Shown here: one piece after another, positions 30,925-46,548 of the stretch | Layout: every line of letters starts with the position of its first letter | How positions within the stretch are numbered: position 1 is the first letter of the stretch | NCBI GenBank assembly: GCA_026397255.1 | Contig: JAPLVF010000014.1 | Location: forward strand, 1-59,023 | From: Candidatus Beckwithbacteria bacterium | GTDB taxonomy: Bacteria > Patescibacteriota > Microgenomatia > UBA1400 > CG1-02-47-37 | Direction: 5' to 3' | Length of the DNA stretch: 59,023 nucleotides | Program-made: the position numbers and the translations under genes | The notes under the pieces: generated by a model | The model's database searches: none | Told to the model about the DNA's origin: nothing | Seen by the model: only the letters and a program-made list of their open reading frames with translations

Positions 30925-31021
30925 ACTAAAATCACCTTCAAGGATAATCCCTGTAGGTTTAGTTTGATATAGTAAGTTCTGGTTGAAGAAAGGGAAATTT
31001 TTTGGGATATTGGTCAAGAAT

Positions 31022-33193
31022 ATGGAAAATGATTGGCAGGTGAAAAAAAGAAGCGGAGAAATCCAGGTTTATGTCGCCAGTAAAATTAGCCACTCAATTT
31101 TTCGGGCGCAACAGAATATTAATAAAGAGGATCAAATCAAAGCTTCCAAAATCGGTCAACTGGTCAGAGAAGAATTAAAGCAAAAATTTGAGAAGGAAAA
31201 GATTTTAGGCACGGATGAAATCGGCGATGTGGTCGAGCGGGTGTTAATTGATCAAAAGCTTTACGATGTGGCCCGGGCGTTTATTATCGCCAGAGAGAAA
31301 CAGCGCCAGGAGGCCAAAGCGGAAAAAGGTTTGGGGGTCATTGACGATATCGGACTGCCTTACAACTCGATTTTGGTGATGAAGAATAAGTATTTATTAA
31401 AAAATGAAACTCCGAAGGGTTGTTTCAAGAGGGTGGCTAAAGCGTTGGCAAAAGCGGAGAAAACAGAGAAAAAGCGGGCATTTTGGGAGGATAAATTTTT
31501 GGAAATAATGAGCAGTTTAAGGTTTTTGCCGGGCGGCCGAACTTTAGCTAATGCCGGAACGACTAATAATCAACTGGCTAACTGCTTTGTGATGCCGATG
31601 CCTGATTCGGTGGAAGGCATTTTTGAGAGTATTAAAGAATCGTCGATTTTGAAAAAAAACGGCGGCGGTGTCGGTTTTTCTTTTTCCCATATCCGCCCCA
31701 AGGGAGATAAGGTTGCCGGGACTTCCGGTAAAGCGGCTGGGCCGGTGGCTTTTATGAGAATTATCAACGAAGCCAGTGAGATTTTACAGCAGGCCGGGGG
31801 TCGGCGCAGCGGCAACATGGTGATTTTGCACATTACTCATCCGGATATTTTGGAATTTATTACCTGTAAAGAAGACGAAGGGCAGTTAAATAATATTAAT
31901 TTTTCTCTGGGTATTACTGATAAATTTATGGTGGCGGTTAAGAAAGACAGGCCTTGGAATCTGATTAATCCGCATACCGGTACTGTAGCTAACAAGGTTT
32001 CGGCCCGCTCAATTTTTGAACTAGCTGCCTCTTATGCGTGGAAAAACGGTGATCCGGGAATGATTTTTCTGGATAGGATTAACCGGGATAACCCGACGCC
32101 TCAGGCTGGAGTTTTGGAAGCAGTCAATTTATGCGGTGAACAACCGTTGTTGGCTTATGAGGCCTGTAATTTAGGGAGTGTAAATTTGGCAAGGCACGTA
32201 AAGGTTGACCCCACTTCTCCGACCAGCCGGCGGATTCGTGGGGTGGACTGGTCTAAATTAAAAGAAACAGTCGAGGTTGGCGTTAGGCTGTTAGACAACG
32301 TCGTATCAATTTGTAAGTATCCTTTAAAGAAAGTTGAGCAAGTGGTGAGAGCTAACCGTAAAATCGGTTTAGGAGTGATGGGTTGGGCGGATATGCTGGC
32401 GAAATTGAACATTCCTTATAATAGTCAGGAGGCTTTAAGGCTGGCGGGGAAATTAATGAAGTTTATTCAAGAGACTACTTGGCAAGTTTCCGAAAGTTTA
32501 GGTAAAGAAAAAGGCAGTTTTCCAAATTTTGAAACGAGTATTTGGCCAAAGCGAAGTTTTAAATCTTTTAGAAATGCGACTTTAATTACGATTGCTCCGA
32601 CCGGATCAATTTCCATGCTGGCGAATTGCAGTTACGGAATAGAACCGCATTTTGCCAACGCTTTTTATAAAGAGGCTTTGGGTGGGGTTCGATTACCGGA
32701 AATCAATAAAGATTTATTAGCTAAATTAAGAACAGAGGGATTAGATATGAGCAATGGTTTAATTGATCAAATTAGTAATAATGGTACACTTCAATTAATT
32801 AAAGAAATCCCTGAAAAAATTAAAAAAATATTTTTAACGGCACATGAGTTGGAATTTGAAGATCATATTAAAATGCAGGCGGCCTGGCAAAAATATACAG
32901 ATAATGCCGTGTCTAAAACAATTAATATGCGTAGTGACGCGCGGATTGAAGATGTGGTTAAAGCTTACATATTAGCTTGGGAGTTGGGGTGCAAGGGAAT
33001 CACGGTTTACCGGGACCAAAGCCGGAAAGAACAAGTACTAAACGTTGGATACAGCAAAAGATTAAAGATTAATGATGAAAGATTAACGAGAAATCAGAAA
33101 TCAGAAAAATGTCCCCAGTGCGGGACTAAAATGTTAAAAACAGAAGGGTGTGCGACCTGTCCCAATTGTGCTTTCTCTGTTTGCAGTTTATGA
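31022..33193 (+). CDS. nrdJ: Class II (adenosylcobalamin-type) ribonucleotide reductase with N-terminal ATP-cone and C-terminal zinc ribbon
   Basis: ATP-cone WQVKKRSGEIQVY.., catalytic NLCGEQPLLAYEACNLGSVNL, and C-terminal CPQCG..CATCPNC. ATG at 31022 is preferred over the TTG at 30983. Confidence 0.85.
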   Translation: MENDWQVKKRSGEIQVYVASKISHSIFRAQQNINKEDQIKASKIGQLVREELKQKFEKEKILGTDEIGDVVERVLIDQKLYDVARAFIIAREKQRQEAKAEKGLGVIDDIGLPYNSILVMKNKYLLKNETPKGCFKRVAKALAKAEKTEKKRAFWEDKFLEIMSSLRFLPGGRTLANAGTTNNQLANCFVMPMPDSVEGIFESIKESSILKKNGGGVGFSFSHIRPKGDKVAGTSGKAAGPVAFMRIINEASEILQQAGGRRSGNMVILHITHPDILEFITCKEDEGQLNNINFSLGITDKFMVAVKKDRPWNLINPHTGTVANKVSARSIFELAASYAWKNGDPGMIFLDRINRDNPTPQAGVLEAVNLCGEQPLLAYEACNLGSVNLARHVKVDPTSPTSRRIRGVDWSKLKETVEVGVRLLDNVVSICKYPLKKVEQVVRANRKIGLGVMGWADMLAKLNIPYNSQEALRLAGKLMKFIQETTWQVSESLGKEKGSFPNFETSIWPKRSFKSFRNATLITIAPTGSISMLANCSYGIEPHFANAFYKEALGGVRLPEINKDLLAKLRTEGLDMSNGLIDQISNNGTLQLIKEIPEKIKKIFLTAHELEFEDHIKMQAAWQKYTDNAVSKTINMRSDARIEDVVKAYILAWELGCKGITVYRDQSRKEQVLNVGYSKRLKINDERLTRNQKSEKCPQCGTKMLKTEGCATCPNCAFSVCSL
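32209..32243. repeat. In-frame hairpin element (family D copy 1) in nrdJ
   Basis: CCCCACTTC...CGTGGGG stem pair encoding DPTSPTSRRIRGV. The partner is at 45259-45286. Confidence 0.55.
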
Positions 33194-34530
33194 AATCAAG
33201 AGGACAATTAGTGGTTAGGTTTGGGCCGATGTGGTCAGATAAAACCAGTTGGTTAATCCGACAATACGGTAAAGGGAAAGGGGTGGTGGCTTTTAAGCCG
33301 ACCTTAGACAAACGTTACACTAATAGAGCGGTATTAAAGAGCCATCATGGTCGAGAAGTAGCGGCAAGTTTTATTGATAGCCGGCAACCGGACTTAATTC
33401 TTAAAAAAGCGTTAAATAAAAAAACGGTTAAAGTGTTGATTGACGAAGTTAATTTTTTTGATGAACAGCTAGTAGGGGTGGTAAAAGAACTTTTAAGTCA
33501 TCAGGTTGATGTTTATGCTGCCGGACTATTACTGGATTCTGAGAGGCGGCCGTTCGGCGCTACGCCGCAACTATTGTCTTTGGCGGATGAAGTAGTGGAA
33601 GGGTTTGCTCATTGTGATTATTTTAAGAATGGCCTTAGATGTGAGAAACGAGCCAAATACACATACGCTAAATTCAAAAAAGAAAAGCAACTGGTGGTGG
33701 GTGCGGCCAGTCTTTATGGGGCGAGCTGTGAAGATCATTATGAAGAGTTGCAGCAACTGGGCGGCCAGTCTTTAAGCTGGTTTGAGCGGGTGAAAGAAAG
33801 CAGTTACGGTAAATTAATTCAGTCGCCACCGGCGTGGTTAAAAACCGTTTCTTTGCCTTACCAAAGACGGCCTTTAGAGATAAAGCGGCGTTACCCCAGA
33901 ATTGAAATCGGTTCAGATAGCATGCGGATCGGCAAAACCACGGCGGCCCAGGTTTTAGCTGAAGGTTTTAAAAAATTAAAATTGCCGGTGGAACTGTCAT
34001 TGGAAGATTGGCCGAATAACCCGTATTTAAAGAAAAGTTACAGTGATCCGTCCAGGGGATTATTACAGTCGCAAAAATGGTTTATTAAAAGAAAACATGA
34101 ACAGTTGTGGAAGGCGGATAAAAACTCAATTTGGATTCAAGATGTGCATCCGGAAATGGATTTTGGCTATGCTTTTACCAATACGCTTTTGAAACGGATG
34201 TCGGGGAAGCATTTTGCCGAGTATATTAAATATTTTAATACCTTTAATTGGTTAAAGGCGCCGGCGCCGGATTTATTAATTTATTTAACGGCCAGCGATG
34301 AAGTGTTAATTAACCGGGCGAAAAAGACGAAAAGAAAATTTGAGCGGGTGGCCAGCAAATACTTTTTATTAATGAAAGCGGTTAATCGGATTTGGGTTTT
34401 AGGGACGGATTATATTAATGTATTAATGATTGATACTGACCACTTTAATTATTCAAAGAATGGAAAAGCCCAAAATGAATTAACGGAAAGGGTAGTAAAA
34501 ACCTTAAAACATTTAGGGTGGAAATTATGA
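33190..34530 (+). CDS. tdk: Fusion protein: thymidine kinase (TK1 type) + deoxynucleoside kinase domain
   Basis: N-terminal half has FGPMWSDKTSWLIR (P-loop), IDEVNFF and the zinc motif CDYF..C...C..H. C-terminal half has a second P-loop GSDSMRIGKTT and dNK-like motifs. The ATG at 33190 overlaps the nrdJ stop (ATGA). Confidence 0.8.
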   Translation: MKSRGQLVVRFGPMWSDKTSWLIRQYGKGKGVVAFKPTLDKRYTNRAVLKSHHGREVAASFIDSRQPDLILKKALNKKTVKVLIDEVNFFDEQLVGVVKELLSHQVDVYAAGLLLDSERRPFGATPQLLSLADEVVEGFAHCDYFKNGLRCEKRAKYTYAKFKKEKQLVVGAASLYGASCEDHYEELQQLGGQSLSWFERVKESSYGKLIQSPPAWLKTVSLPYQRRPLEIKRRYPRIEIGSDSMRIGKTTAAQVLAEGFKKLKLPVELSLEDWPNNPYLKKSYSDPSRGLLQSQKWFIKRKHEQLWKADKNSIWIQDVHPEMDFGYAFTNTLLKRMSGKHFAEYIKYFNTFNWLKAPAPDLLIYLTASDEVLINRAKKTKRKFERVASKYFLLMKAVNRIWVLGTDYINVLMIDTDHFNYSKNGKAQNELTERVVKTLKHLGWKL

Positions 34531-35165
34531 GTTTGATTGTTTTTGAGGGCATCGACGGTTCGGGGAAATCGACCCAGGTACAAATGCTCTTTAATTATTT
34601 AAAGAGCAAAAAAGTTAAGGTCGAAAAGTTGGATTTTCCCCGCTATGATTGTTTTTTCGGGAAAATAATCCATTTTATTTTGCATCAAAAATGGGGGAAA
34701 GAAATCAGTCCGTACTGGGTGGCGTGGCTCTTCGCGACTGACAGATTATTGGCAAAGAGAATGATTAATAATTGGCTGAAAGCGGGCAAGACGGTTTTAA
34801 TTGATCGGTATACCGGCTCCAGCCAAGCCCACCAGGGGGCGAAATTAAAAGGAAAAGAAAGGGAGAAAATAATTAATTGGATTGAAAGGTTGGAAGATCA
34901 ATGGTACGGATTGCCGAAGGCGGACGAGGTGTTTTGGTTAAAGATGCCGGCTCAAGTTACCAGCCAGTTAATCAGCGGCCGGAAACGGGAGAAAGATGAA
35001 GCAGAGAAAGACTTGGAACACCAGCGTCAGGCGTTTGAAATTTATCAGCAGTTGGCAAAAAGAAAAAAATGGCAGATAATTAATTCCCTGGATAAAAATA
35101 ATCAACTTTTATCAGCGCAAAAAATTCATGAAGAAATTATCTCTCGACTTTGCTCGAGATTATAA
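34527..35165 (+). CDS. tmk: Thymidylate kinase
   Basis: MSLIVFEGIDGSGKSTQ P-loop and DRYTGSS. ATGA overlap with the upstream gene. Confidence 0.85.
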   Translation: MSLIVFEGIDGSGKSTQVQMLFNYLKSKKVKVEKLDFPRYDCFFGKIIHFILHQKWGKEISPYWVAWLFATDRLLAKRMINNWLKAGKTVLIDRYTGSSQAHQGAKLKGKEREKIINWIERLEDQWYGLPKADEVFWLKMPAQVTSQLISGRKREKDEAEKDLEHQRQAFEIYQQLAKRKKWQIINSLDKNNQLLSAQKIHEEIISRLCSRL

Positions 35166-35571
35166 ACCAGAATTAATTAAACAAGCGATTGAAGCGTCGA
35201 AGAATTTTTACGCGCCGTATTCCAAGTATCAGGTCGGGGCGGCGTTATTAACTGTTGGCGGCGAGATTTTTTCCTCCTGTAATGTGGAAGTTTGTTCTTA
35301 TGGTTTGACTGATTGTGCCGAGTCAAGTTTAATTTCTAAGGCAGTCAGCGAAGGTATGGTGAAAAAATACGGCCGGAAATTTATTAAAGCGGTAGCGATA
35401 GTGACTAAGAACGGCGGTATGTCCTGCGGCCGTTGCCGGCAGAGAATAGCCGAACATTGTGATGATTGTGAAATTATCAGCGGGAATTTAAAAGGTAAAA
35501 TTTTAAAAATAACGAGTTTGAAAAAAATGTTGCCGGAAGCGTTTACGCCGACTTCGCTGGGGATAGAGTAA
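35128..35571 (+). CDS. cdd: Cytidine deaminase
   Basis: YSKYQVGAAL, the zinc ligands C-A-E (DCAESS) and CGRCRQ. Confidence 0.8.
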   Translation: MKKLSLDFARDYKPELIKQAIEASKNFYAPYSKYQVGAALLTVGGEIFSSCNVEVCSYGLTDCAESSLISKAVSEGMVKKYGRKFIKAVAIVTKNGGMSCGRCRQRIAEHCDDCEIISGNLKGKILKITSLKKMLPEAFTPTSLGIE

Positions 35572-35767
35572 TATCGATTTTGCCTTCAGGAGTGATCATT
35601 AGTTTTTTTGCTTCCAATAATTGCTTAAGGGCAACTTTTGATGCTCCAGGTGCCAAAGGCGTACCATTAGCTAATTGCTGTTGTCCGATTAATTCAGTGG
35701 CTTTAAAGGCGCTTTTGTTAAAAATTGTTACTGCTAGATTAGCGGCCCATTCTGGAATTTGTGGCAT
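35543..35767 (-). CDS. Possible small protein (74 aa) on the opposite strand between cdd and the nucleoside phosphorylase
   Basis: Fills a gap of about 220 nt. A plus-strand ORF of the same size competes for the region. No motif recognised. Confidence 0.3.
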   Translation of the reverse strand: MPQIPEWAANLAVTIFNKSAFKATELIGQQQLANGTPLAPGASKVALKQLLEAKKLMITPEGKIDITLSPAKSA

Positions 35768-35793
35768 AGACTTTTTTAGACTATACTCTTATT

Positions 35794-36582
35794 ATGAGCT
35801 TTAAGTCAAGTTCGGCGGAAAAACCGACCGAAAAAGGTTTGCAGTATCATATCCGGTTAAAAGCCGGGGATATTCCGCCTTTTGTGTTGATGCCGGGAGA
35901 TCCGAAACGGGTCGTGAAAATCGCCTCTTTGTGGGATAAAAATCAGTTTGTGGCTGATTACCGGCAGTATGTGACTTACAAAGGTGAGTATCACGGGGTA
36001 AAGTTGGCCTGTGTTTCCAGCGGGATCGGCTCGCCGGCATTGGCGATTGCCTTGGAAGAGTTGGTAAGAATTGGTACTAAGACAGTGATTCGGGTGGGGA
36101 CGTGCGGCAGTTTACAGCCGGAGATGTATCCGGGTGATTTAGTGATTACGACCGGGGCGGTGCGATTGGACGGGGCGTCGAAAGATTATGTGATTCCGGA
36201 ATATCCGGCCGTAGCGGATTATCGGGTGGTGGAAGCTTTAATTAAAGCTTCCAAAAAATTAAAGGTTAAATATCATGTTGGCATTACCGCTTCGACCGAT
36301 ACATTTTATTGTGGGCAGGGGCGGTCGGGATTTAATGATTATTTGCCTAGCCATAAAGAGAATATTTTTAAAGATATGCAAAAAGCGAGAGTGAAAAACT
36401 TTGAGATGGAAGGCGGGTGTTTGTTAACGTTAGCGTCAGTGTTCGGTATCAGCGCGGGCATGGTTTGTGTGGTGGTGGCTGACAGGGTTCATAATCAGTT
36501 TAAAATTACCGATGAAATGGAACAATCGGCAGCCTTAGTGGCCAGTGAAGCAATTAGGCTCTTGCAAATAAAATATAAATAG
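35794..36582 (+). CDS. PNP/UDP-1 family nucleoside phosphorylase (Udp/DeoD-like)
   Basis: MPGDPKRV, RVGTCGSL and NFEMEGG motifs. Confidence 0.8.
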   Translation: MSFKSSSAEKPTEKGLQYHIRLKAGDIPPFVLMPGDPKRVVKIASLWDKNQFVADYRQYVTYKGEYHGVKLACVSSGIGSPALAIALEELVRIGTKTVIRVGTCGSLQPEMYPGDLVITTGAVRLDGASKDYVIPEYPAVADYRVVEALIKASKKLKVKYHVGITASTDTFYCGQGRSGFNDYLPSHKENIFKDMQKARVKNFEMEGGCLLTLASVFGISAGMVCVVVADRVHNQFKITDEMEQSAALVASEAIRLLQIKYK

Positions 36583-36773
36583 TTTAAATAATTAAGTATG
36601 TTTCCTGATAGATTGCCGGAAATTAAAAGAGACAGAATTGATCCTGAATTAAAATCTGATTTACCCGGGACGGTTTCGGGAAGCACAGGGATGTCAGAAG
36701 AGACGGCTCAAGTTTATAAAACAGTAAAAGTTAGTGACGGGAATCTTGGACAAGCAGATAAATTAATTCCCGC

Positions 36774-36802
36774 TTGACAAGAAAAATTAATTTTAGTATT
36801 GT
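36774..36802 (+). promoter_or_regulatory. Sigma70-like promoter TTGACA-17-TATTGT for the pyr operon leader
   Basis: TTGACA at 36774-36779, TATTGT at 36797-36802. Confidence 0.5.
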
Positions 36803-36806
36803 TAAA

Positions 36807-36843
36807 TCCCAGAGCTATGAAACATAATTCTGGGAGTTTTTTT
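36807..36843 (+). terminator. Leader hairpin 1 plus U7 (attenuator candidate)
   Basis: TCCCAGA (36807-36813) pairs with TCTGGGA (29-35), followed by TTTTTTT (36837-36843). Confidence 0.45.
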
Positions 36844-36867
36844 ATCATAAAATTAACAGGAGGTAAC

Positions 36868-36889
36868 CCCGCGAGAGCGGGATTTTTTT
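36868..36889 (+). terminator. Leader hairpin 2 (CCCGC-GAGA-GCGGG) plus U7
   Basis: 5-bp GC stem with a GNRA loop, followed by TTTTTTT (36883-36889). Confidence 0.45.
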
Positions 36890-36907
36890 CCGCCAAAGGC
36901 GGACAAG
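36883..36907 (+). promoter_or_regulatory. 25-nt leader motif TTTTTTTCCGCCAAAGGCGGACAAG (copy 1), ending 1 nt before the start codon
   Basis: 24 of 25 nt identical to 43471-43495. Contains the hairpin CCGCC-AAA-GGCGG. Confidence 0.7.
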
Positions 36908-36908
36908 T

Positions 36909-38351
36909 ATGAAAAAAATAAACTTTAACGACCATTTTGCCAATTTAACCAAGATTAATGCCAGCTTGAATAATGGGGCCAGGGAAAACTATCAAAAAAC
37001 CGGGCTAACTTATGTGGATGTGCCGGAAATTGTGGGTATTACCGGCGCCTGCGAGAATGTGGATACTTTATTTAAGGTCGGTAACCGCTTAGATATTCCT
37101 TTGTTTTTTACCCAAACCGGCCAGCTTTCTTTAGAGCAGGCCTTGCAATCGTTTCACGGGGCTTTTACGGTGATTCATTCCGGCCGGGATGAAGAAGTGG
37201 AAGACGAACGGCATCTAAGACAATTTCGCCTGACGGAAGAAGAGTTTGACTGCACTTTGGCAGGAATGACCAGAAAAAATTACGATGAAGAAAAAATGTT
37301 TGAGGCGCTTTTACAGCATATCCAAAAAGCGATTCAGGGGATGATTAAAGCGGTTCTAAAAGACAATAAAACAATTCTTAAAAAGTTCTATGACCGGGAT
37401 ATTCTCAAGTTGGAGCAGGCCGCCAAAGTTAATTTTTTAAGAATTAATTACGAAGAGGCGGTTAAGCTGTTAAATAAACACGGTTTTAATAAATTAAAGT
37501 TTGGCGATGACTTAAAAGCTGATCACGAACAAATGGTGGTGAAATTACTAAACAAAAAAGGTTCAGAATTGCCGGTGTTTATCATGCGTTATCCCAAAGA
37601 AATTAAGTTTTTCAACATGAAGGTATCGAATAAAGATCCGCGGGTGGTTTTGTCGGCCGATTTAATCCTGCCCCATAGCGGTGAAGCGACCGGTTCGGCA
37701 GTGCGGGAACATGATTTTAATAAACTAAACCAGCGCTTACTGACATCAACGATGTACCGGCTGCATTTACAACGGGGTGGGGTTTATGCAGACTTTGGCT
37801 GGTATTTAAAGATTATTAAAGGTCAGGGGACGAATCCTCATGCCGGTTATGGTATCGGTAATGAACGCGTAATGCAGTATATTTTCGGGGAAAAAGATAT
37901 TAGGAATGTTTCCTTGTTTTCCCAGCTTAATAAGCAGTCACAGGATTGGCACGAAAAGCGCTATGGACAGGCAGCGCTGTACAGTATTGATAAAAAACAG
38001 CTGCTGTTAACGATCGGTAAATTAAGCGACAAAAAGAAACTTTTGCCTTATATTGCCAAATTAAATAAAAATTTTACCCTTTATGCGACCCAAAAAACGC
38101 ATGAATTTTTGAAAACTAAAGGAATTAAAACTGCCATGGTGCATAAAATTTCGGCGATCGGCCAAAAGCCGAACATCGGCGATTTATTAACCCGTCGGGT
38201 GTTTGACTTAGTGATTAATATCCCTCAAGGAAAGTCGGACGAGTTAACTGATGGTAAGCTGATCCGCCGGGCCTCGGCCGAAGCGGGAATATCCTTGATA
38301 ACCGATATGCCAATGGCTAAGCTAGTGTTAGAAAATCTATGCCGACACTAA
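36909..38351 (+). CDS. Class II aaRS-core / AsnA-like ligase (no anticodon-binding domain) fused to a C-terminal MGS-like domain
   Basis: Motif 2-like HLRQFRLTEEEF and motif 3-like HAGYGIGNERVMQYIFG. C-terminal LLLTIGKLSDKKKLL..LYATQKTHEFLKTKGIKTAMVHKI..FDLVINIP..GKLIRRASAEAGISLITD resembles the CarB C-terminal/MGS fold. Confidence 0.65.
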   Translation: MKKINFNDHFANLTKINASLNNGARENYQKTGLTYVDVPEIVGITGACENVDTLFKVGNRLDIPLFFTQTGQLSLEQALQSFHGAFTVIHSGRDEEVEDERHLRQFRLTEEEFDCTLAGMTRKNYDEEKMFEALLQHIQKAIQGMIKAVLKDNKTILKKFYDRDILKLEQAAKVNFLRINYEEAVKLLNKHGFNKLKFGDDLKADHEQMVVKLLNKKGSELPVFIMRYPKEIKFFNMKVSNKDPRVVLSADLILPHSGEATGSAVREHDFNKLNQRLLTSTMYRLHLQRGGVYADFGWYLKIIKGQGTNPHAGYGIGNERVMQYIFGEKDIRNVSLFSQLNKQSQDWHEKRYGQAALYSIDKKQLLLTIGKLSDKKKLLPYIAKLNKNFTLYATQKTHEFLKTKGIKTAMVHKISAIGQKPNIGDLLTRRVFDLVINIPQGKSDELTDGKLIRRASAEAGISLITDMPMAKLVLENLCRH

Positions 38352-39259
38352 AAGTTAATTTTTTAGGCGTTAGTTTTCCTAATCCATTAGTATTGCCGTC
38401 GGGGATTCTACAGGAGATTCCCGGCCACATGGTGGCCGTAAAAGCCGGGGTGGGCGGGGTGACGTTAAAATCTTTAACCCGTGAAAAACGGGAAGGAAAC
38501 CCAATGCCGCGGGTAATCAAATATGAATCTGGGATTTTAAACTCAGTCGGTTTAAGAAATCCGGGGATTGATAAGGGAATAGAATTGGCGGGTGAGTTTA
38601 TTAAAGTTTGTCCGGTGCCGGTAATTGTCAGCATTTTCAGTGTCAAAACCAGCGAGTTTGCTGAGTTAGCTAAAAAAGCTTTGGTGATTAAACCCCAGTT
38701 TTTAGAATTAAACTTATCTTGTCCGAATGCGGTGAACGAAATGGGTCAACCTTTGGGAATGGGGGTTGATTCAACAACTGCGGCAGTCAAAGCGGTTAAA
38801 AAAACAGTTGGCGCAAAAGTTAAATTAATTGCTAAGTTGTCACCGAATGTGATCAATATCGGCGAAGTGGCTAAGGCAGCGGAGGCAAGCGGTGCGGATG
38901 CGATTTGCGCGATTAATACGGTTGGTCCGGGCATGGTGATTGATATTAAAACCAGAAAGCCGATGTTGGGCAATTTAATCGGCGGTGTGTCCGGTCCGGG
39001 AATCCGGCCAGTGGCGGTTAAATGCGTTTGGGAAATTTATAAATCAGTTAAGTTGCCGATTATCGGTATGGGCGGAGTGGAGAAGGCTCGTGATGTAGTG
39101 GAAATGATGCTGGCCGGAGCGACGTTAGTCGGCGTCGGTTCAGCCATGTACCGCCACGGTTTTGAGGTTTATGAAAAAATTAAAGCTGATTTGGTTAAAT
39201 ATATGGAGGATAATAAAATTAATAAATTAGCAGAAATTATTGGAGGTGTCCATGAGTAA
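38339..39259 (+). CDS. pyrD: Dihydroorotate dehydrogenase, class 1 catalytic subunit
   Basis: FPNPLVLPSG, LNLSCPN (active-site Cys), IGGVSGPGIRP and MGGV..A.D..E...AGA. Confidence 0.9.
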   Translation: MPTLKVNFLGVSFPNPLVLPSGILQEIPGHMVAVKAGVGGVTLKSLTREKREGNPMPRVIKYESGILNSVGLRNPGIDKGIELAGEFIKVCPVPVIVSIFSVKTSEFAELAKKALVIKPQFLELNLSCPNAVNEMGQPLGMGVDSTTAAVKAVKKTVGAKVKLIAKLSPNVINIGEVAKAAEASGADAICAINTVGPGMVIDIKTRKPMLGNLIGGVSGPGIRPVAVKCVWEIYKSVKLPIIGMGGVEKARDVVEMMLAGATLVGVGSAMYRHGFEVYEKIKADLVKYMEDNKINKLAEIIGGVHE

Positions 39260-39881
39260 AATATTAACAATTTTAAAAAGAACTAAGGCAATTACGACTG
39301 ACAGCCATATTGTTTTAACTTCCGGAAAACACAGCAGTAAATATTTAAATAAAGATGCGTTGTATCCGCATACAAAAGAAGTTTCGCGCGTGGGAAAGAT
39401 GATTGCTCAAAAATATAAAGATAAAGAAATTGATGCCGTGATCGGGCCAGCCATGGGGGGAATAATCTTATCCCAGTGGACGGCTTACCACTTAACTAAA
39501 TTAAAAAGAAAAGAAATTTTAGGCGGGTATAGTGAAAAAGATGAACAAAACAATCAAATTTTTCGGCGAGGTTATGATCAGTTGGTTAAGAATAGAAAAG
39601 TCTTAGTGGTGGAGGACTTTACGACGACTGGCGGTTCGGTAAAAAAGACCGTGGATAGCGTGAAGGCTTTGGGGGGGGAAGTGGTGGGAGTTTGCGTGAT
39701 GGTGAATCGTGACCCTAAAAATGTAACGGCAAAAGTAATCGGAGCACCGTTTACTTCTTTAGGAATTTTCAGTGCCGATGCTTATGAGGAAAAATTCTGC
39801 CCGATGTGTAAAGCTAAAATGCCGGTTAATACTACCCTTGGTCATGGCCGGGAATATTTAAAAAAGAAAGCGGGAAAATGA
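39252..39881 (+). CDS. pyrE: Orotate phosphoribosyltransferase
   Basis: PRPP loop VLVVEDFTTTGGS. GGAGG sits 6 nt upstream of ATG 39252. Confidence 0.85.
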   Translation: MSKILTILKRTKAITTDSHIVLTSGKHSSKYLNKDALYPHTKEVSRVGKMIAQKYKDKEIDAVIGPAMGGIILSQWTAYHLTKLKRKEILGGYSEKDEQNNQIFRRGYDQLVKNRKVLVVEDFTTTGGSVKKTVDSVKALGGEVVGVCVMVNRDPKNVTAKVIGAPFTSLGIFSADAYEEKFCPMCKAKMPVNTTLGHGREYLKKKAGK

Positions 39882-40618
39882 ACTTTCAGGACAAGCTGGA
39901 CAAAATTGTTGCCAAAAATAATTCACTTCTTTGCGTAGGGTTGGACCAGGGAGAATGGGAGTTTAACCAGAAAATTATTGACCAAACCCATGATTTGGTG
40001 TGTGCTTATAAGCCTAATTTTGCTTTTTACGAAGCGTTGGGAATCAGAGGCTGGGAAAATTTAAAAAAAACAGTGGAATATATAAAAACATTCCACTCCG
40101 GAGTGGTAGTAATTGCTGATGCCAAGCGGGCGGATATCGGTAATACTAACGAGGGATACGTCAAGTCAATTTTTGATGATTTAGGATTTGATGCGGTGAC
40201 GGTTAACCCGTATTTTGGCCGGGAAGCGCTCCAGCCGTTTTTAGACCGAGCGGATAAGGGGATTATCATTTTATGTAAAACTTCTAATCCGGGTAGTGGT
40301 GAATTCCAGGACTTAGTTTGGGAAAAAGTTGCCAGAAATGTGGTCAATGATTGGAATAAAAATAACAACTGTTTGTTAGTGGCGGGGGCGACTTATCCGG
40401 AAGAATTAGCCAAAATCAGAAAAATTGCGGGGGAAATGACGCTATTAGTGCCGGGAATCGGGGAGCAGGGCGGGGATGTCGAAAAGACGGTTAAAGCCGG
40501 ATTAAACCGTCAGAAAGCCGGTATGATTATTAATTCTTCGCGCGGGATAATTTTTAGTGAAAATCCCCGCTTGGAAGCGCAAAAATTAAGAGATAGAATT
40601 AATCAATACCGCCAATGA
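39878..40618 (+). CDS. pyrF: Orotidine-5'-phosphate decarboxylase
   Basis: LCVGLD and IADAKRADIGNT (DxKxxD) motifs. ATGA overlaps at both ends. Confidence 0.85.
   Translation: MNFQDKLDKIVAKNNSLLCVGLDQGEWEFNQKIIDQTHDLVCAYKPNFAFYEALGIRGWENLKKTVEYIKTFHSGVVVIADAKRADIGNTNEGYVKSIFDDLGFDAVTVNPYFGREALQPFLDRADKGIIILCKTSNPGSGEFQDLVWEKVARNVVNDWNKNNNCLLVAGATYPEELAKIRKIAGEMTLLVPGIGEQGGDVEKTVKAGLNRQKAGMIINSSRGIIFSENPRLEAQKLRDRINQYRQ
40082..40116. repeat. 35-nt segment with an 18-nt palindrome core (family C copy 1) inside pyrF
   Basis: ATAAAAACATTCCACTCCGGAGTGGTAGTAATTGC is 33 of 35 nt identical to 42772-42806 in guaB, in the same reading frame (FHSGVVVIA). Confidence 0.85.
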
Positions 40619-41454
40619 AATACAAAATTGTCAGCGCTAAACCAAAAGAAAAACTGGATGTTGCCAAATTAATAAAATATCCGAAAGATTTTCACGGCTC
40701 GACGAAAGTTGATCATTTAGTTAAATTCGGGGATTCGTTTGTCAGTTTAATTGGTAAAAGCGAGGCGGATTTGCCTAAAGATGGAGTGGTGATTTTGGAA
40801 CATGATTTTGACGAAGCCAGAAAATTAATGGATAAGATTAATGAGTTGGCCCAACAGGTAATCAGCGACGCGACTAAATATGACGATGTTGGTTTTTGCC
40901 GGGAATACTTTAATTTGGCTCAAGCTGGTTACAGAATGCTGGATAAATATAAACCGGTGGGAATACCTGTTAGTTTAGAGCGGGCCGGATTAGTAACAAC
41001 CAGACTGGTTTTAGGGGTAGACAGAGATGCGGTGATTGAGAATGAGCAGCGGGTAGTGACTAAGCGAACACATCTTGTTGCCGAGCCGGACACAAATTTG
41101 TCGGTCACGGTTCAGTGGCGGGATATCCCTAAGCTAAAACAAATCTCAAGCCGGGAAATTCTTTTAAGCGATTTTGTTAATCCGGCCTCCGGAGCTTCCG
41201 GGCTGGCTTTTATTGTGGCGGCTCAGGCCAAAGGCCTAGCCGTAGCGAAAATTAACCATCGGTCAATCAGCTGTACCCGGCAAGGATTGATTTTTACCAG
41301 AAAAACATTAGCCGATATGGGGATTAAAAGTAGTTTTACAAGTGTGGGTGAAGCGAACGAATTAAATGAAATGTATTATTTAACCGGCCAGAGGGCGGTC
41401 GCCGATGCCGGGCACTTATTGCGTCACTTCCTACCCAAGTGGTATAAACAGTAG
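40615..41454 (+). CDS. Uracil-phosphoribosyltransferase-like protein with an N-terminal extension of about 90 aa
   Basis: LLSDFVNPASGASG resembles the Upp PRPP-binding loop (DPMLATGGS), and the C-terminal YYLTGQRAV.DAG resembles the uracil-binding region. Sequence is divergent. Confidence 0.55.
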   Translation: MKYKIVSAKPKEKLDVAKLIKYPKDFHGSTKVDHLVKFGDSFVSLIGKSEADLPKDGVVILEHDFDEARKLMDKINELAQQVISDATKYDDVGFCREYFNLAQAGYRMLDKYKPVGIPVSLERAGLVTTRLVLGVDRDAVIENEQRVVTKRTHLVAEPDTNLSVTVQWRDIPKLKQISSREILLSDFVNPASGASGLAFIVAAQAKGLAVAKINHRSISCTRQGLIFTRKTLADMGIKSSFTSVGEANELNEMYYLTGQRAVADAGHLLRHFLPKWYKQ

Positions 41455-41456
41455 AT

Positions 41457-42344
41457 ATGTTGGTTTTTTCCGGCACTTCAAATAAGTTATTGGCAGCCAG
41501 GTTAGCTAAAGCGTTAAAAACGAGACTGGGAAAAATTGAATTATCTAAGTTTCCGAATGACGAAATCAGAGTGTGGGTGACAGAAAAAAATGTGGGCAAG
41601 CGAGCCGTGGTGGTGCAGTCTTTGTCGCATCGGACAGACAACCATTTGATGCAATTTTGCTTGATTTGCGATGCTTTAAAAAGAAAAGGGGTTAATAAAA
41701 TTATTGCGGTGATTCCCTGGATGGGTTATTCCAAACAGGATAAAGCTTTCCGGCCGGGCGAGCCGTTATCAGCTCAGGTGGTCGCTAAAATGTTAGAAGT
41801 AACACAGTTAACAAAAATAATTACTTATGATTTACACAAACCGGAGATTGCCAGATTTTTCAAAACTAAAGTAATTAATTTGTCCGGCAGAAGAGTTTTT
41901 CGGGAGTATTTTAAAAATAAAGTCGATCAAAATACGGTCGTGGTGGCGCCGGATGAAGGAGCCCGTAATTCCTCCAAGCGGTTTGCTTATGATTTAAAGG
42001 CACATGTGGCCTACATTAAGAAAAAAAGAGATTTAAATACCGGCAAAGTCACGGTTAGAGGCATCAGCCGGAGCGTGGCCGGTAAGAAAATTCTCATTAA
42101 AGATGACATGATTGCTACCGGCAGCACTTTAATCGAAGCGGCTAAATTTTTAAAAACCCAAAACGTGGCGTCGATTGCCGTGGCCGCGACGCACCATTTG
42201 TATTTGCCGGGAGTGCAGGAAAAGTTAGACCAAAGCGGGATTACCAACTTAGTGGTGACGGATACGGTCGAGCCAAAAGCACGATCAAAAAAACTAACGG
42301 TGGTGAGTGTGGCGGAAATGATTGCTAAAGAAATTAGAAACTGA
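41457..42344 (+). CDS. prs: Ribose-phosphate pyrophosphokinase (PRPP synthetase)
   Basis: FPNDEIRV, PWMGYSKQDK, TYDLH and DDMIATGSTL. Confidence 0.9.
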   Translation: MLVFSGTSNKLLAARLAKALKTRLGKIELSKFPNDEIRVWVTEKNVGKRAVVVQSLSHRTDNHLMQFCLICDALKRKGVNKIIAVIPWMGYSKQDKAFRPGEPLSAQVVAKMLEVTQLTKIITYDLHKPEIARFFKTKVINLSGRRVFREYFKNKVDQNTVVVAPDEGARNSSKRFAYDLKAHVAYIKKKRDLNTGKVTVRGISRSVAGKKILIKDDMIATGSTLIEAAKFLKTQNVASIAVAATHHLYLPGVQEKLDQSGITNLVVTDTVEPKARSKKLTVVSVAEMIAKEIRN

Positions 42345-42348
42345 TTTG

Positions 42349-43422
42349 ATGAACAAAGTCATTAATTTAAATAATCAAAGCGAGTGGTTGACGTTTGACG
42401 ATGTGTTATTGCTGCCGAATTATTCGGAAGTGACGCCTTCAAAAACGGATACAACAACTAAGTTAACAGAAAAAATTAAATTGCCAATTCCGATTTTAGC
42501 CTCACCGATGGACACAGTTTGCGAATCAGCGATGGCCCTCCGTTTAGGTAAAATCGGCGGGTACGGCATTATCCATCGTAACTTATCAATCGAAAAACAA
42601 GTGGGCGAATTAAAATTGGTTTTAAAAGCAGGGGTAAAAGCAGGAGCGGCGGTTGGGGTAGGGGTGGATTTTAAAGATAGAGTGGCGGCTTTAATTAAAG
42701 CCGGGGTGAAGGAGATTTGTGTGGATTCGGCCCACGGCCACACGAAACACGTTATTGAGGCAATTAAAAAGATAAAAATATTCCACTCCGGAGTGGAAGT
42801 AATTGCCGGCAATGTGGCTACTTATGAAGGCGCTGATGATTTATTTAAAGCCGGCGCGGCGGCAGTCAAAGTAGGGATGGGGCCGGGTTCGATCTGCACC
42901 ACCAGAATTATGTCCGGCATGGGAGTGCCGCAGTTGTCAGCGATTGTGGCTGGGGCCAAAGCGGCTAAAAAATATAAAAAAAGCATTATTGCCGACGGCG
43001 GTATCCGTACCAGCGGAGATCTGGTGAAAGCTTTGGCGGCCGGAGCGGCTGCAGTGATGCTGGGTTCTTTATTAGCCGGGACTGACGCGGCGCCGGGGAA
43101 ATTAGTCACTTATCAAGGTAAAAAATATAAAACTTACCGGGGAATGGGTTCGGTTGGAGCGATGAAGCAAGGGAGTGCCGAACGTTATGGTCAGAAAAAA
43201 ACCGATAAAATCCTGGTGGCGGAGGGGGTGGAGGGATTAGTAGAATACAAAGGCAAGCTGGAAGATTTTGTTTACCAGTTAGTCGGCGGGTTAAGATCAG
43301 GTTTAGCCTACCTGGGAGCAAAAAACTTAAAAGAATTGCGGCAAAAGGCCAAGTTCATCCGGATTTCCCGCGCCGGCGTGTATGAATCCCGGCCGCACAG
43401 CATTTTGCTGCTTGACAGGTAA
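42349..43422 (+). CDS. guaB: IMP dehydrogenase lacking the CBS (Bateman) subdomain
   Basis: [33 protein letters not shown] (catalytic Cys), IADGGIR and the IMPDH flap [15 protein letters not shown]...VAEGVEG. Only 357 aa. Confidence 0.85.
42772..42806. repeat. 35-nt segment with the perfect 18-nt palindrome TTCCACTCCGGAGTGGAA (family C copy 2) inside guaB
   Basis: See 40082-40116. Encodes FHSGVEVIA. Confidence 0.85.
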
Positions 43423-43440
43423 AAAATAATCGATTATTTT
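43412..43440 (+). promoter_or_regulatory. Sigma70-like promoter TTGACA-17-TATTTT overlapping the guaB stop
   Basis: TTGACA at 43412-43417, TATTTT at 43435-43440. Confidence 0.45.
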
Positions 43441-43451
43441 GGAAGTAGATT

Positions 43452-43477
43452 AGGGCTAAGGAAGCCCTATTTTTTTT
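43452..43477 (+). terminator. Hairpin AGGGCT-AAGGA-AGCCCT plus U8 (guaB terminator and/or attenuator of the downstream operon)
   Basis: 6-bp stem at 43452-43468, T-run at 43470-43477. Confidence 0.5.
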
Positions 43478-43495
43478 CTGCCAAAGGCGGACAAG
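43471..43495 (+). promoter_or_regulatory. 25-nt leader motif TTTTTTTCTGCCAAAGGCGGACAAG (copy 2)
   Basis: 24 of 25 nt identical to 36883-36907. Followed by GGGCAG, AAAGGAGGT and then ATG 43515. Confidence 0.7.
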
Positions 43496-43514
43496 GGGCA
43501 GAAAGGAGGTAAAA

Positions 43515-43694
43515 ATGGTTAATTCAGAGAGGTTATTACCAGATCCTCCAGTTCCACAAGAAGCAACACCGGCGGAAACACATTCCAGACTAGAGTATTT
43601 GTCGCCAGAAGTACGGGAAAGATTACAAAAGCTCGCTGAAACTAGGGGGGAAGCGGCGGCGGCGGCGGAAACCGTGGGATTGATGGATGCATAG
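43515..43694 (+). CDS. Small ORF (59 aa) with a near-perfect Shine-Dalgarno, first cistron of the PRTase-guaA unit
   Basis: Own translation: MVNSERLLPDPPVPQEATPAETHSRLEYLSPEVRERLQKLAETRGEAAAAAETVGLMDA. AAAGGAGGT lies 5 nt upstream. It is below the track cutoff. Confidence 0.45.
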   Translation: MVNSERLLPDPPVPQEATPAETHSRLEYLSPEVRERLQKLAETRGEAAAAAETVGLMDA

Positions 43695-43713
43695 TTTTCC
43701 GCTATAATTAAAT

Positions 43714-44319
43714 ATGGCGAATGAGTTAGCTTTTTTAAAGCAGGAGTTTTTAAGGGAAGCGAAAGTCATTGATGCAACAAGAGGTTATATTTCAGTCGGC
43801 TCTTTTAATTTGCGGATGAAGCCGGAGGTGTTAAAGGCAGCAGCCCGATTAATCGCCAATGTTTTTAAAAACGATAAGATTGATACGGTCCACGGCATTC
43901 CTCATTCCGGCAATTATTTGGCAACGGCAGTGGCTCTGGAATTGGGAAGTAAAGTCCGGTTACACAGTTCACGTAAAGACCAGAATATTCCGACCAGCTG
44001 GAAAGATGTTTATCGTCAGGAAGTGCGGTCGTTTACGACTTCGTCCGGCGGGGTGGATGTTTTTTCCGGGATTAATTTATCTTTTGTGAAAAAAGGCGAC
44101 CGGGTGCTCTTATTGGACGATGTTTGTGCCAAAGGGGAAACCGGTTATAGAATTGTTAAAGGCTTGTTGGAGCGGGGAGTGAAAGTAGTCGGATTTGCGG
44201 TTTTATTTGATAAAGTTTTTCAGGGCGGATTAGAGCAAGTGCAGACTTTGGGGGTGAAAGTATTTTCCTGCGTGAGGGTAAAAAGTATCGACAAGAATGA
44301 TCAGGTGAAGTTGTTATGA
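43714..44319 (+). CDS. Type I phosphoribosyltransferase (purine/adenine-PRT-like)
   Basis: PRPP loop VLLLDDVCAKGETG. Overlaps the guaA start (ATGA). Confidence 0.7.
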   Translation: MANELAFLKQEFLREAKVIDATRGYISVGSFNLRMKPEVLKAAARLIANVFKNDKIDTVHGIPHSGNYLATAVALELGSKVRLHSSRKDQNIPTSWKDVYRQEVRSFTTSSGGVDVFSGINLSFVKKGDRVLLLDDVCAKGETGYRIVKGLLERGVKVVGFAVLFDKVFQGGLEQVQTLGVKVFSCVRVKSIDKNDQVKLL

Positions 44320-46520: not shown

Positions 46521-46548
46521 AATAAATATTTTAACATATAATAAATCC

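Follow-up and report, generated by a model that had tools for sequence, protein, structure and literature searches.

The six steps of de novo pyrimidine synthesis are regarded as universally conserved, and a CPR genome without carAB, pyrB and pyrC is usually taken to lack the pathway. The protein described here, X, may be an unrecognised ATP-dependent entry to this pathway. Its closest described functional counterparts are AsnA and AS-AR, which use ATP on Asp or Asn without tRNA and provide the obvious analogy (PMC9437257); according to the literature, AS-A is of AspRS-like ancestry. A second point of comparison is the allosteric domain of CarB, in which T977, K993, T1042 and S948 have effector-site roles, T1042 being an ornithine-site residue (PMC6245113).

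Domains and active site of X

The window is the whole stretch of DNA analysed, 59,023 nucleotides in length. The open reading frame at 36909..38351 (plus strand) encodes X, a protein of 480 residues, and is present as the earlier note gave it. X is the first gene after an attenuator-like leader, in an operon with the order X–pyrD–pyrE–pyrF–unknown–prs–guaB. The features are:

36774..36802, plus strand: promoter-like site TTGACA-17 nt-TATTGT (10/12 matches), in the 326-nt gap 5' of X
36808..36908, plus strand: attenuator-like leader with three hairpins and two U7 tracts
36817..36912, plus strand: possible 31-codon leader ORF, a candidate from sequence
36909..37958, plus strand: X core, AsnRS-type class II catalytic domain, aa 1–350 (Pfam, NCBIfam, conservation, model)
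37971..38351, plus strand: CarB-type MGS-like (allosteric) domain of X, aa 355–480 (Pfam, NCBIfam and PDB matches)
38339..39259, plus strand: pyrD, class-1 dihydroorotate dehydrogenase (NF005574, 303 bits versus cut-off 269)
39240..39881, plus strand: pyrE, orotate phosphoribosyltransferase, Thermus type (TIGR01367, 134 bits, slightly below the cut-off of 150; Pfam)
39878..40618, plus strand: pyrF, OMP decarboxylase subfamily 2 (TIGR02127, 221 bits versus cut-off 111)
40615..41454, plus strand: conserved 279-aa protein with no assigned function, an operon member in this lineage
41457..42344, plus strand: prs, ribose-phosphate diphosphokinase (Pfam)
42322..43422, plus strand: guaB, a short form of IMP dehydrogenase that has no CBS domains (Pfam)

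The core of X is matched by tRNA-synt_2 (PF00152) at residues 8–339 with 122 bits (cut-off 25, E 2.8e-35; Pfam), and by asnS (TIGR00457) over the catalytic part only, profile positions 133–452, with 184 bits (cut-off 343; NCBIfam). Pfam gives no match to the anticodon-binding domain PF01336, and the protein begins at asnS profile position 133, in the catalytic domain. Motif 2 (HLRQFRLTEEEF, at aa 102) and motif 3 (GYGIGNERVMQYIFG, at aa 313) were both located, bearing out the earlier reading of class II aaRS catalytic motifs without an anticodon-binding domain. The AF2 model of X (pLDDT 84) has AsnRS structures as its best matches (1x54, E 1.5e-23).

All class IIb ATP/adenylation residues are retained in X (R93, E95, H102, F106, D251, E259 and R320); the conserved P39, R93/E95/F106, G313–R320, D251 and E259 represent class II motifs 1, 2 and 3 and the ATP/Mg ligands. 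The catalytic ATP and Mg residues are strictly invariant across X members from CPR, DPANN and Oligoflexales. X also keeps the AsnRS-type amino-acid determinants Q72, L75, E110 and R266, and E49, T70 and Q72, which in AsnRS bind the free alpha-amino group, are invariant in the family. By contrast, the motif-2 loop, basic in true AsnRS (K/R-R), is acidic in X (positions 96 and 98 are E/E), and the Tyr of the AsnRS KAFYM motif is replaced (Y236N); both changes argue against tRNA charging by X. Judged by these residues, the ATP and amino-acid site of X is intact and its tRNA-binding features are lost. X proteins form a large family with no prior characterisation, set apart from true AsnRS by the acidic loop and Y236N and separate from known AsnA/AS-AR; full-text literature searches found no account of this fusion or of a pyrimidine bypass in CPR bacteria. 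The AsnA likeness claimed at the outset holds as far as an AsnRS/AsnA-like core is concerned, but X resembles AsnRS far more than it does AsnA/AS-AR. Two candidates were discarded: C48 as an X-specific catalytic residue, since it is common in archaeal-type AsnRS too, and P0379 as a bridge to the AS-AR alignment, since it is a true AsnRS truncated at its N-terminus.

The C-terminal part of X carries an MGS domain (PF02142) at residues 386–465, with 51.9 bits (cut-off 24.1, E 8.4e-14; Pfam). It matches the CarB C-terminus at profile positions 931–1050 (NCBIfam) and the CPS1 MGS domain (PDB 2yvq, E 1e-8), and residues 363–479 alternate between strand and helix in the AF2 model (pLDDT 80–93). The earlier note's reading of the protein, as a tRNA-independent AsnRS/AsnA-like ligase core with a CarB-type allosteric domain, is supported. 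The equivalents of E. coli CarB K954, T974 and N1015, which we take to be UMP/IMP-site residues, and of T977, K993 and T1042 have a conservation of at least 0.96 in 47 X tails and at least 0.88 in eight ArgG tails. The X tail therefore keeps the CarB UMP/IMP-site and ornithine-site residues, that is, a conserved putative effector site. The MGS tails of X, ArgG and PyrD-like proteins are closer to each other (74–97 bits) than to CarB (about 30–70 bits). As ArgG carries the domain too, and so do PyrD-like proteins of one canonical cluster (L110), it is no unique mark of X as the committed step.

The attachment of MGS directly to PyrD-like proteins would also suit a role for X outside the pathway proper, either as a subunit that regulates or scaffolds DHOD/OPRT, much as HisZ serves HisG, or as an enzyme that passes Asn from Asn-AMP to a non-tRNA acceptor. 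Regulatory and transfer aaRS paralogues are known (HisZ, EpmA; PMC9437257), and a fully AsnRS-like pocket most simply predicts activation of the Asn alpha-carboxyl. However, the invariance of the catalytic ATP/Mg residues across these three groups argues for catalysis, PyrD functions without X in canonical CPR clusters, and no candidate acceptor gene recurs beside X. We regard a role of this kind as a long shot.

The operon and its leader

The overlap of the X stop codon with the pyrD start, which the earlier note had observed, measures 13 nt. The ATGA-type coupling it described along the operon is found at pyrE/pyrF and at pyrF/279-aa gene, but prs follows after a 2-nt gap and the guaB start is ambiguous (TTG at 42322, or ATG at 42349 right after the prs stop). 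A hairpin and T-run resembling a terminator (43451–43479), 3' of guaB, are likely to mark the operon end. The downstream identities stand for pyrD, pyrE, pyrF, prs and guaB, but not for the supposed upp-like gene, for whose 279-aa product no homology to Upp or any other protein could be detected: there is no Pfam, NCBIfam or PDB match, a profile search of PDB was empty and hhalign against E. coli Upp gave a probability of 0.8%. The single-sequence AF2 model of this product has a pLDDT of 37, too low to be of use. In L037, the gene for this protein lies directly after X. No pyrK is present alongside pyrD. Across the 59-kb window, phmmer (E. coli and CPR-type queries) and Pfam on the remaining large ORFs found no carA, carB, pyrB or pyrC, consistent with the earlier note, and no argG or argF. 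AsnRS, AspRS, AsnA and AsnB were likewise not found nearby in the window or in the other loci, a scale too small for their absence to carry weight.

In the leader, hairpin 1 (36808–36834) and a GC hairpin (36868–36881) are each followed by a U7 tract, and a third hairpin (36890–36902) covers the SD-like region. The same design precedes X in five relatives (L009, L010, L011, L182 and L183), and in L180 a homologous leader stands before argF in the order argF–pyrB–pyrC–X. TTGACA does not vary among the homologous leaders that six relatives contribute to alignment A3. Of the cells in the terminator-hairpin alignment, 92.9% are paired, compared with 26–57% in slid controls, and three of the six pairs show a compensatory change. 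A T-box, a PyrR site or another known RNA before X was discounted, since no Rfam match was found upstream of X at E up to 1. The candidate leader ORF spans both U-tract hairpins and ends in an ATGA that also holds the start codon of X; relatives' leader ORFs are Lys/Ile-rich, have 14–17 codons and end just 5' of the terminator hairpin. A promoter, a putative leader ORF and, immediately 5' of the first gene, a conserved intrinsic terminator together form a pyrBI-type layout.

X, pyrD and alternative entry modules

In CPR genomes, pyrD lies immediately downstream of X on the same strand in 25 of 42 loci in which X bears MGS, versus 1 of 22 core-only loci. The two are also fused, as X–MGS–DHO_dh (L001, 833 aa) and as X–MGS–DHO_dh–PRTase (L030, 1129 aa; representative P0241, 1134 aa), so that the link to pyrD proposed from the window alone proves strong and recurrent. 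Late pyrimidine genes also adjoin distant X homologues, at one archaeal locus (L077) and two Oligoflexales loci (L083 and L087). Canonical early pyrimidine genes are missing from most X operons (about 10 kb searched per locus, and 59 kb for the window): CarA, CarB or PyrB was found within 10 kb in none of 45 X–MGS loci, and X in none of 80 PyrC-anchored loci. A shared syntenic frame, consisting of an ATP synthase operon, an entry module and PyrD–PyrF–PyrE–PyrG, contains CarA–CarB–PyrB–PyrC in L095 and X–MGS in L041, with downstream enzymes that are 57–65% identical. X–MGS and CarA–CarB–PyrB–PyrC are alternative entry modules in this one frame. In about 20% of loci, an ArgG–MGS and a CodA/AtzC-like hydrolase are encoded just upstream of X. 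The amidohydrolase of L001, considered as a possible PyrC, was rejected because it belongs to the CodA/AtzC-like family PRK06886.

The slot directly 5' of pyrD is that of PyrC in canonical CPR clusters, in line with the suggestion of the earlier note that X substitutes for dihydroorotase; it would adenylate the beta-carboxyl of carbamoyl-aspartate, with the ureido nitrogen closing the ring. The ArgG–MGS and CodA/AtzC-like hydrolase could in principle supply this substrate from citrulline and aspartate, but most X operons contain no visible source of carbamoyl-aspartate, and the invariant alpha-amino-binding residues E49, T70 and Q72 suit an N-carbamoylated substrate poorly. Canonical pyrB and pyrC in the same genome as X had been named beforehand as refuting the substitution, and they are found in a close relative (L180, X 84% identical), in which argF–pyrB–pyrC lie directly in front of X and an intact PyrC gene overlaps the X start by 20 nt. 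PyrC and X also occur together in L016 and in L070, where X adjoins a complete canonical gene set. Relatives' genuine PyrC proteins have an amidohydrolase domain, which Pfam does not find in X. An ATP-driven cyclase beside a reversible dihydroorotase would run a futile cycle, so X is not simply a dihydroorotase substitute, and a replacement of this kind is very unlikely.

Core-only relatives are 55–75% identical to X, share its active-site consensus and are mostly unlinked to pyrimidine genes. Their neighbours include genes for SHMT, an AspC-like aminotransferase and PEP carboxylase and, in archaea, TrmB regulators and aaRS genes, surroundings that fit an enzyme of Asp-to-Asn interconversion. 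X could accordingly be an ammonia-dependent asparagine synthetase (Asp + NH3 + ATP to Asn + AMP + PPi) that supplies Asn for translation, the product of a second, independent AsnRS-to-AsnA conversion, with pyrD adjacency reflecting a shared aspartate supply or the remnant of an early-gene deletion. That the AsnRS-like core stands alone, has a pocket shaped for Asn and lacks tRNA-binding features, and that the family is widespread in CPR and DPANN genomes, often remote from pyrimidine genes, is compatible with such an enzyme, for which archaeal AS-AR and bacterial AsnA are precedents (PMC9437257); deletions from a canonical set with X, as in L070, could leave X–pyrD behind. However, asparagine synthesis leaves unexplained the X–MGS–DHOD(–PRTase) fusions, the CarB-type nucleotide-effector domain, the correlation of MGS with pyrD adjacency and the absence of X from canonical PyrC-anchored clusters. 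It also begs the question of why coupled pyrD–pyrE–pyrF would be kept in many reduced genomes without a source of dihydroorotate, and X scores far under the AsnA/AS-AR family cut-offs. We consider this explanation, the chief competitor of the reading preferred below, somewhat unlikely. Even if X were only an asparagine synthetase, it would represent an independent AsnRS-to-synthetase conversion that had also acquired an effector domain transplanted from CarB, and its physical fusion to DHOD/OPRT would be an unusual regulatory arrangement.

Proposed role and comparison with known systems

The reading we prefer, tentatively and with a little less than even confidence, is that X is a nucleotide-regulated, adenylate-forming, tRNA-independent Asp/Asn ligase that feeds dihydroorotate dehydrogenase. 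X would derive from an AsnRS catalytic domain, work by ATP-dependent formation of an acyl-adenylate, and have been recruited into pyrimidine synthesis in Microgenomates-type CPR bacteria as a regulated step, delivering dihydroorotate or its immediate precursor. The CarB-type domain would sense a nucleotide monophosphate (UMP/IMP-like) for feedback control, and the leader-peptide and terminator attenuator would add a second level of control on the operon. As an entry module, X might act alone before pyrD, as in the window, or accompany carbamoyl-donor modules: argF–pyrB–pyrC, ArgG–MGS with the CodA/AtzC-like hydrolase, or CarAB–PyrB–PyrC.

Three chemistries can be ranked for such a ligase. The first, in itself unlikely, starts from the arithmetic that Asn + CO2 − H2O equals dihydroorotate: Asn, CO2/bicarbonate and ATP would give dihydroorotate by activation of an N-carboxy group, the side-chain amide closing the ring. 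BioD (dethiobiotin synthetase) and TsaC/Sua5 convert an amine, CO2 and ATP to an activated carbamate, BioD making a ureido ring and TsaC threonylcarbamoyl-AMP; they are precedents for this chemistry with folds unrelated to X, and we know of no class II aaRS-like enzyme that activates a carbamate. The second, which we find quite improbable, is AsnA-type activation of the beta-carboxyl, the C4–N3 amide being made at the expense of ATP; it could proceed via Asn or carbamoyl-Asn, with ring closure losing NH3, or with urea as nucleophile. The third, direct ATP-driven cyclisation of carbamoyl-aspartate, seems to us highly improbable. That X alone turns Asn, CO2/bicarbonate and ATP, or alternatively Asp, urea and ATP, into dihydroorotate is rather improbable; if it did, one UMP-regulated enzyme would replace carbamoyl-phosphate synthetase, aspartate carbamoyltransferase and dihydroorotase, and X would be a fourth kind of pyrimidine entry and the first aaRS-fold enzyme to build a heterocycle. 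If X supplies dihydroorotate by any route, many Microgenomates called pyrimidine auxotrophs would be prototrophs that enter the pathway by another, ATP-driven route, the reconstructed metabolism of ultrasmall symbionts would have to be revised, and the class II aaRS fold would have a new catalytic use.

The best sequence and fold match of X is the AsnRS catalytic domain (class IIb; Pyrococcus horikoshii, PDB 1x54), with which it shares motifs 1–3, the Mg/ATP ligands, the Asn-discriminating pair L75 and E110 (AspRS K198 and D233) and R266. Unlike AsnRS, X lacks the anticodon-binding domain and has the acidic motif-2 loop, Y236N, T99D, an extra S280–M282 insertion and the added C-terminal MGS domain. 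AsnA/AS-AR (PDB 3p8t and 1nnh) are stand-alone class II aaRS-like cores as X is, but the relationship is remote: 3p8t is matched at E 1e-3, PRK06462 families score 33–74 bits against cut-offs of 309–389 (NCBIfam), and Pfam gives no AsnA match in X. These scores, far under the family cut-offs, exclude X from the known AS-AR family; archaeal and Oligoflexales members of the X family reach 55–109 bits against the AS-AR families. X is also AsnRS-like, whereas AS-A descends from an AspRS-like ancestor. PyrC, of the amidohydrolase superfamily, occupies the same operon slot directly 5' of pyrD in alternative cluster types, but it has no homology to X, which is predicted to use ATP. The UTP-sensitive attenuator of E. 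coli pyrBI (pyrL) has no sequence similarity to the X leader, whose ORFs are Lys/Ile-rich and A-rich, but shares its layout of promoter, short putative leader ORF, U-tracts and intrinsic terminator. Finally, the CarB allosteric domain has in common with the X tail the match to the MGS fold and the UMP/IMP-site and ornithine-site residues; in CarB it is attached to ATP-grasp synthetase domains, in X to an aaRS-like core.

An AsnRS-derived core with a CarB-type tail

It is firmly shown that X, the protein encoded upstream of pyrD, represents a new and coherent family that derives from AsnRS and no longer has the tRNA-binding features. The window features referred to below are as follows.

Features in the window
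33148–34530: thymidine kinase fused to deoxynucleoside kinase, 460 aa
36909–38351 (+): X, 480 aa
38339–39259: PyrD, class 1 (LSCPN cysteine)
40615–41454: conserved operon member, 279 aa
42322–43422: short IMP dehydrogenase, 366 aa, without CBS pair

Pfam tRNA-synt_2 covers X residues 8–339 (E = 2.8e-35) and Pfam MGS residues 386–465 (E = 8.4e-14). Residues 11–343 match the catalytic part of NCBIfam asnS (profile positions 133–452) at 184 bits, far under the cut-off of 343 bits, and residues 355–475 match the final 120 residues of NCBIfam CarB. Among solved structures, Pyrococcus horikoshii AsnRS is the closest relative (1x54, E = 2e-30); the archaeal asparagine synthetase AS-AR (3p8t) matches at only E = 1e-3. 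For the tail, human CPS1 gives a match through its MGS domain. In an AlphaFold2 model built from 39 family members (pLDDT 84.3), the predicted core superposes on AsnRS structures (1x54, E = 1.5e-23), and the sole low-confidence stretch, residues 43–69, is the most conserved loop in the family (GITGACENVDTLF). The motifs and gene overlaps described in the earlier note needed small corrections only.

The family conserves motif-2 R93 and E95, H102, F106, the Mg ligands D251 and E259, and motif-3 R320. Also conserved are E49, T70 and Q72, which hold the α-amino group in class IIb enzymes, and the AsnRS-type side-chain determinants L75 (AspRS K198), E110 (AspRS D233) and R266. Together with consistent differences from true AsnRS, these residues point to an adenylating enzyme that is catalytically competent, binds Asn/Asp and works independently of tRNA.

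Positions distinguishing the X family from true AsnRS
50: N in X; G or D in true AsnRS
96 and 98 (motif-2 loop): acidic or neutral in X; basic (K/R, R) in true AsnRS
99: D in X; T in true AsnRS
236: N in X; Y in true AsnRS
280–282: S...M insertion in X; no insertion in true AsnRS
323: Q in X; variable in true AsnRS

Over 120 clusters (90% identity) have the core+MGS architecture and are 64–88% identical to the window X; those with names are Microgenomates (Beckwith-, Gottesman-, Roizman- and Levybacteria), the group in which X is firmly shown to have gained its CarB-type effector domain. When 1.8 billion representatives were searched exhaustively, about 100 clusters matched at E values up to 1e-30; multi-domain forms of 1134, 822, 857 and 807 aa were found as well. 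Relatives without the MGS domain (core-only) abound in other CPR lineages (55–75% identity) and in DPANN/other archaea and Oligoflexales (about 40%, about 330 aa). All subgroups score best against the AsnRS catalytic domain and fall well short of the AS-A families. MGS-bearing and core-only CPR groups have an identical consensus at every conserved position; they probably share one reaction. In a recurrent architecture (locus L070, 8603–11128; representative proteins P0243, P0255 and P0357), the core follows an N-terminal extension (about 470 aa) that had no family match.

Equivalents of E. coli CarB K954, T974, T977, K993, N1015 and T1042 hardly vary across the tails of 47 X and 8 ArgG proteins. 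We take K954, T974 and N1015 to be effector-site residues, from the CPS–IMP structure. UMP binding and inhibition depend critically on T977 and K993, T1042 is an ornithine contact, and the nucleotide response needs S948 (PMC6245113). The MGS domain therefore most likely acts as a nucleotide-effector module. This type of domain is also fused to bona fide ArgG in several CPR loci (508 bits against a cut-off of 334) and to a PyrD-like–PRTase protein in L110.

Genomic context of X

The window is ordinary CPR (Beckwithbacteria-like) chromosomal sequence, with MreB, a glycosyltransferase, sigma-70, PBP2, DprA and TopA among its products. Its nucleotide-metabolism block (30983–46628) comprises 16 consecutive genes, in the order RNR, TK–dNK fusion, tmk, cdd, udp, X, pyrD, pyrE, pyrF, a conserved unknown gene, prs, guaB, xpt, guaA and a PNP/MTAP-like gene, with SHMT slightly beyond. 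A terminator-like hairpin 3′ of guaB (43451) suggests that the unit ends there, the transcription unit probably being leader–X–pyrD–pyrE–pyrF–unknown–prs–guaB. Searching the 59-kb window for carA, carB, pyrB, pyrC, argF and argG found none, in agreement with the absence of the first four reported earlier.

No pyrK was seen in any locus, though the window PyrD scores best as a 1B catalytic subunit. Aspartase or fumarase genes lie inside several such operons (L002, L007, L044, L070 and L095), a hint that fumarate may be what accepts the electrons. The 279-aa protein, with invariant SLERAGL and DFVNPASGAS motifs, has orthologues in L008, L009, L010, L037 (directly 3′ of X) and L180; homology searches with it gave no detectable homologue, and its former upp-like label lacks support (hhalign against E. 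coli Upp, probability 0.8%).

Context was sampled in 84 non-redundant X loci (1.23 Mb). Every absence given here refers to the 10 kb around an anchor gene or, in the window, to its 59 kb.

PyrD or PyrD-like immediately 3′ on the same strand, and CarA/CarB/PyrB present
CPR X with MGS (45 loci): 25 of 42 with enough downstream sequence, 2 fused; 0/45
CPR core-only X (28 loci): 1/22; 1/28 (L070)
Distant X homologues (11 loci): 0/8; 0/11

It is firmly shown that X has become part of the late pyrimidine operon, in some cases as a fusion with the operon's enzymes, that a conserved attenuator-like leader precedes it, and that it usually stands where the canonical early genes are absent. Fusions are X–MGS–DHO_dh (L001, 833 aa) and X–MGS–DHO_dh–PRTase (L030, 1129 aa; P0241, 1134 aa). 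In 80 metagenome loci anchored on CPR-type PyrC (738 kb), no X homologue was found, PyrB occurring in 43 and CarB in 14; in these canonical clusters PyrC lies just 5′ of PyrD or PyrD-like, followed by AspA, PyrF and PyrE. L095 and L041 share a frame of ATP synthase alpha–gamma–beta–epsilon, an entry module and PyrD–PyrF–(PyrE)–PyrG, with downstream enzymes 57–65% identical; the entry module is CarA–CarB–PyrB–PyrC in L095 and X–MGS in L041. In L019 it is ArgG–MGS, a CodA-like gene and X–MGS.

The main rival reading is a housekeeping AsnA-type asparagine synthetase, favoured by the aspartate-related neighbours of core-only relatives and by their wide spread away from pyrimidine genes; such an enzyme would not account for the effector domain, for the X–DHOD fusions or for the exclusion pattern with respect to canonical clusters. 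Among distant homologues, one lies near pyrG–pyrF (archaeon L077) and two between PRTase and OMP decarboxylase (Oligoflexales L083 and L087); most archaeal copies adjoin TrmB regulators or aaRS genes.

ArgG–MGS occurs in 7 MGS-bearing loci and a CodA/AtzC-like amidohydrolase (PRK06886 family) in 9, usually directly upstream of X. In L001 (7413–9991) a genuine ArgG with C-terminal CarB-type MGS precedes the amidohydrolase, and the pair recurs in L013, L014, L019, L022, L028, L044 and L048. As pure inference, it might transfer the citrulline carbamoyl group to aspartate. L001 also encodes a cyclodipeptide synthase (PF16715; 15396–16109) just 3′ of the pyrimidine cluster of this CPR genome. In many CPR operons a divergent dihydroorotate-dehydrogenase-like family (about 350–375 aa, scoring only about 60 bits against pyrD models), often PRTase-fused, stands in for canonical PyrD.

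Divergent dihydroorotate-dehydrogenase-like proteins
L003, 11502–12557
L014, 11433–13352
L021, 11456–13309
L110, 12490–14751 (N-terminal MGS domain besides the PRTase fusion)

Coexistence with PyrC and the putative reaction

X and PyrC are both present in three loci. L070 carries CarA–CarB–PyrB–PyrC, then an 841-aa protein joining the N-terminal extension to an X core without MGS; L016 carries PyrC–X–MGS. The most telling is L180, with the operon argF–pyrB–pyrC–X–pyrD–pyrE–pyrF (argF 411 bits against 306, pyrB 316 against 237), where X is 84% identical to the window X and the stop region of an intact DHOase gene overlaps its start. Two other close relatives, L182 and L183, resemble the window; in near relatives, X is a fixed component, preceded by an optional module. 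Metagenome loci L107, L109 and L112 have two adjoining OTCase-family genes then pyrC, the argF–pyrB–pyrC module of L180, with no X or pyrD adjoining.

The earlier proposal of a strict dihydroorotase substitute is disfavoured by L180, because an ATP-driven carbamoyl-aspartate cyclase beside a reversible DHOase would waste ATP. The simplest functional inference has X feeding DHOD, as an alternative or additional entry to dihydroorotate that would be ATP-driven and nucleotide-regulated. One candidate reaction is Asn + CO2 + ATP -> dihydroorotate, the stoichiometry of which balances; it would suit the Asn pocket and the want of carbamoyl donors, and would agree with PyrC coexistence. X might instead perform an AsnA-type amidation, ATP paying for the C4–N3 amide, or cyclise carbamoyl-aspartate, of the three the least compatible with L180.

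The leader upstream of X

Conserved leader
Window, 36774–36912
L009, 104–263
L010, 6293–6450
L011, 9802–9958
L180, 3962–4088
L182, 9881–10000
L183, 5760–5915

The 326-nt gap upstream of X contains a promoter-like site (TTGACA-17-TATTGT), a 5′ hairpin then U7, a GC hairpin then U7, a third hairpin covering the SD-like region, and a small ORF ending within the ATGA of the X start. Leaders homologous to this one precede X in L009, L010, L011, L182 and L183, and argF, the first operon gene, in L180. Their common design is a TTGACA promoter, a hairpin with U-run, a short leader ORF and a covarying GC terminator with U7–8. Across 7 sequences the terminator hairpin is 93% paired (slid controls, 26–57%), with compensatory change in 3 of 6 pairs; an Rfam search of the leader gave no family match. 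The layout resembles that of the E. coli pyrL–pyrBI attenuator, and the leader may sense nucleotides.
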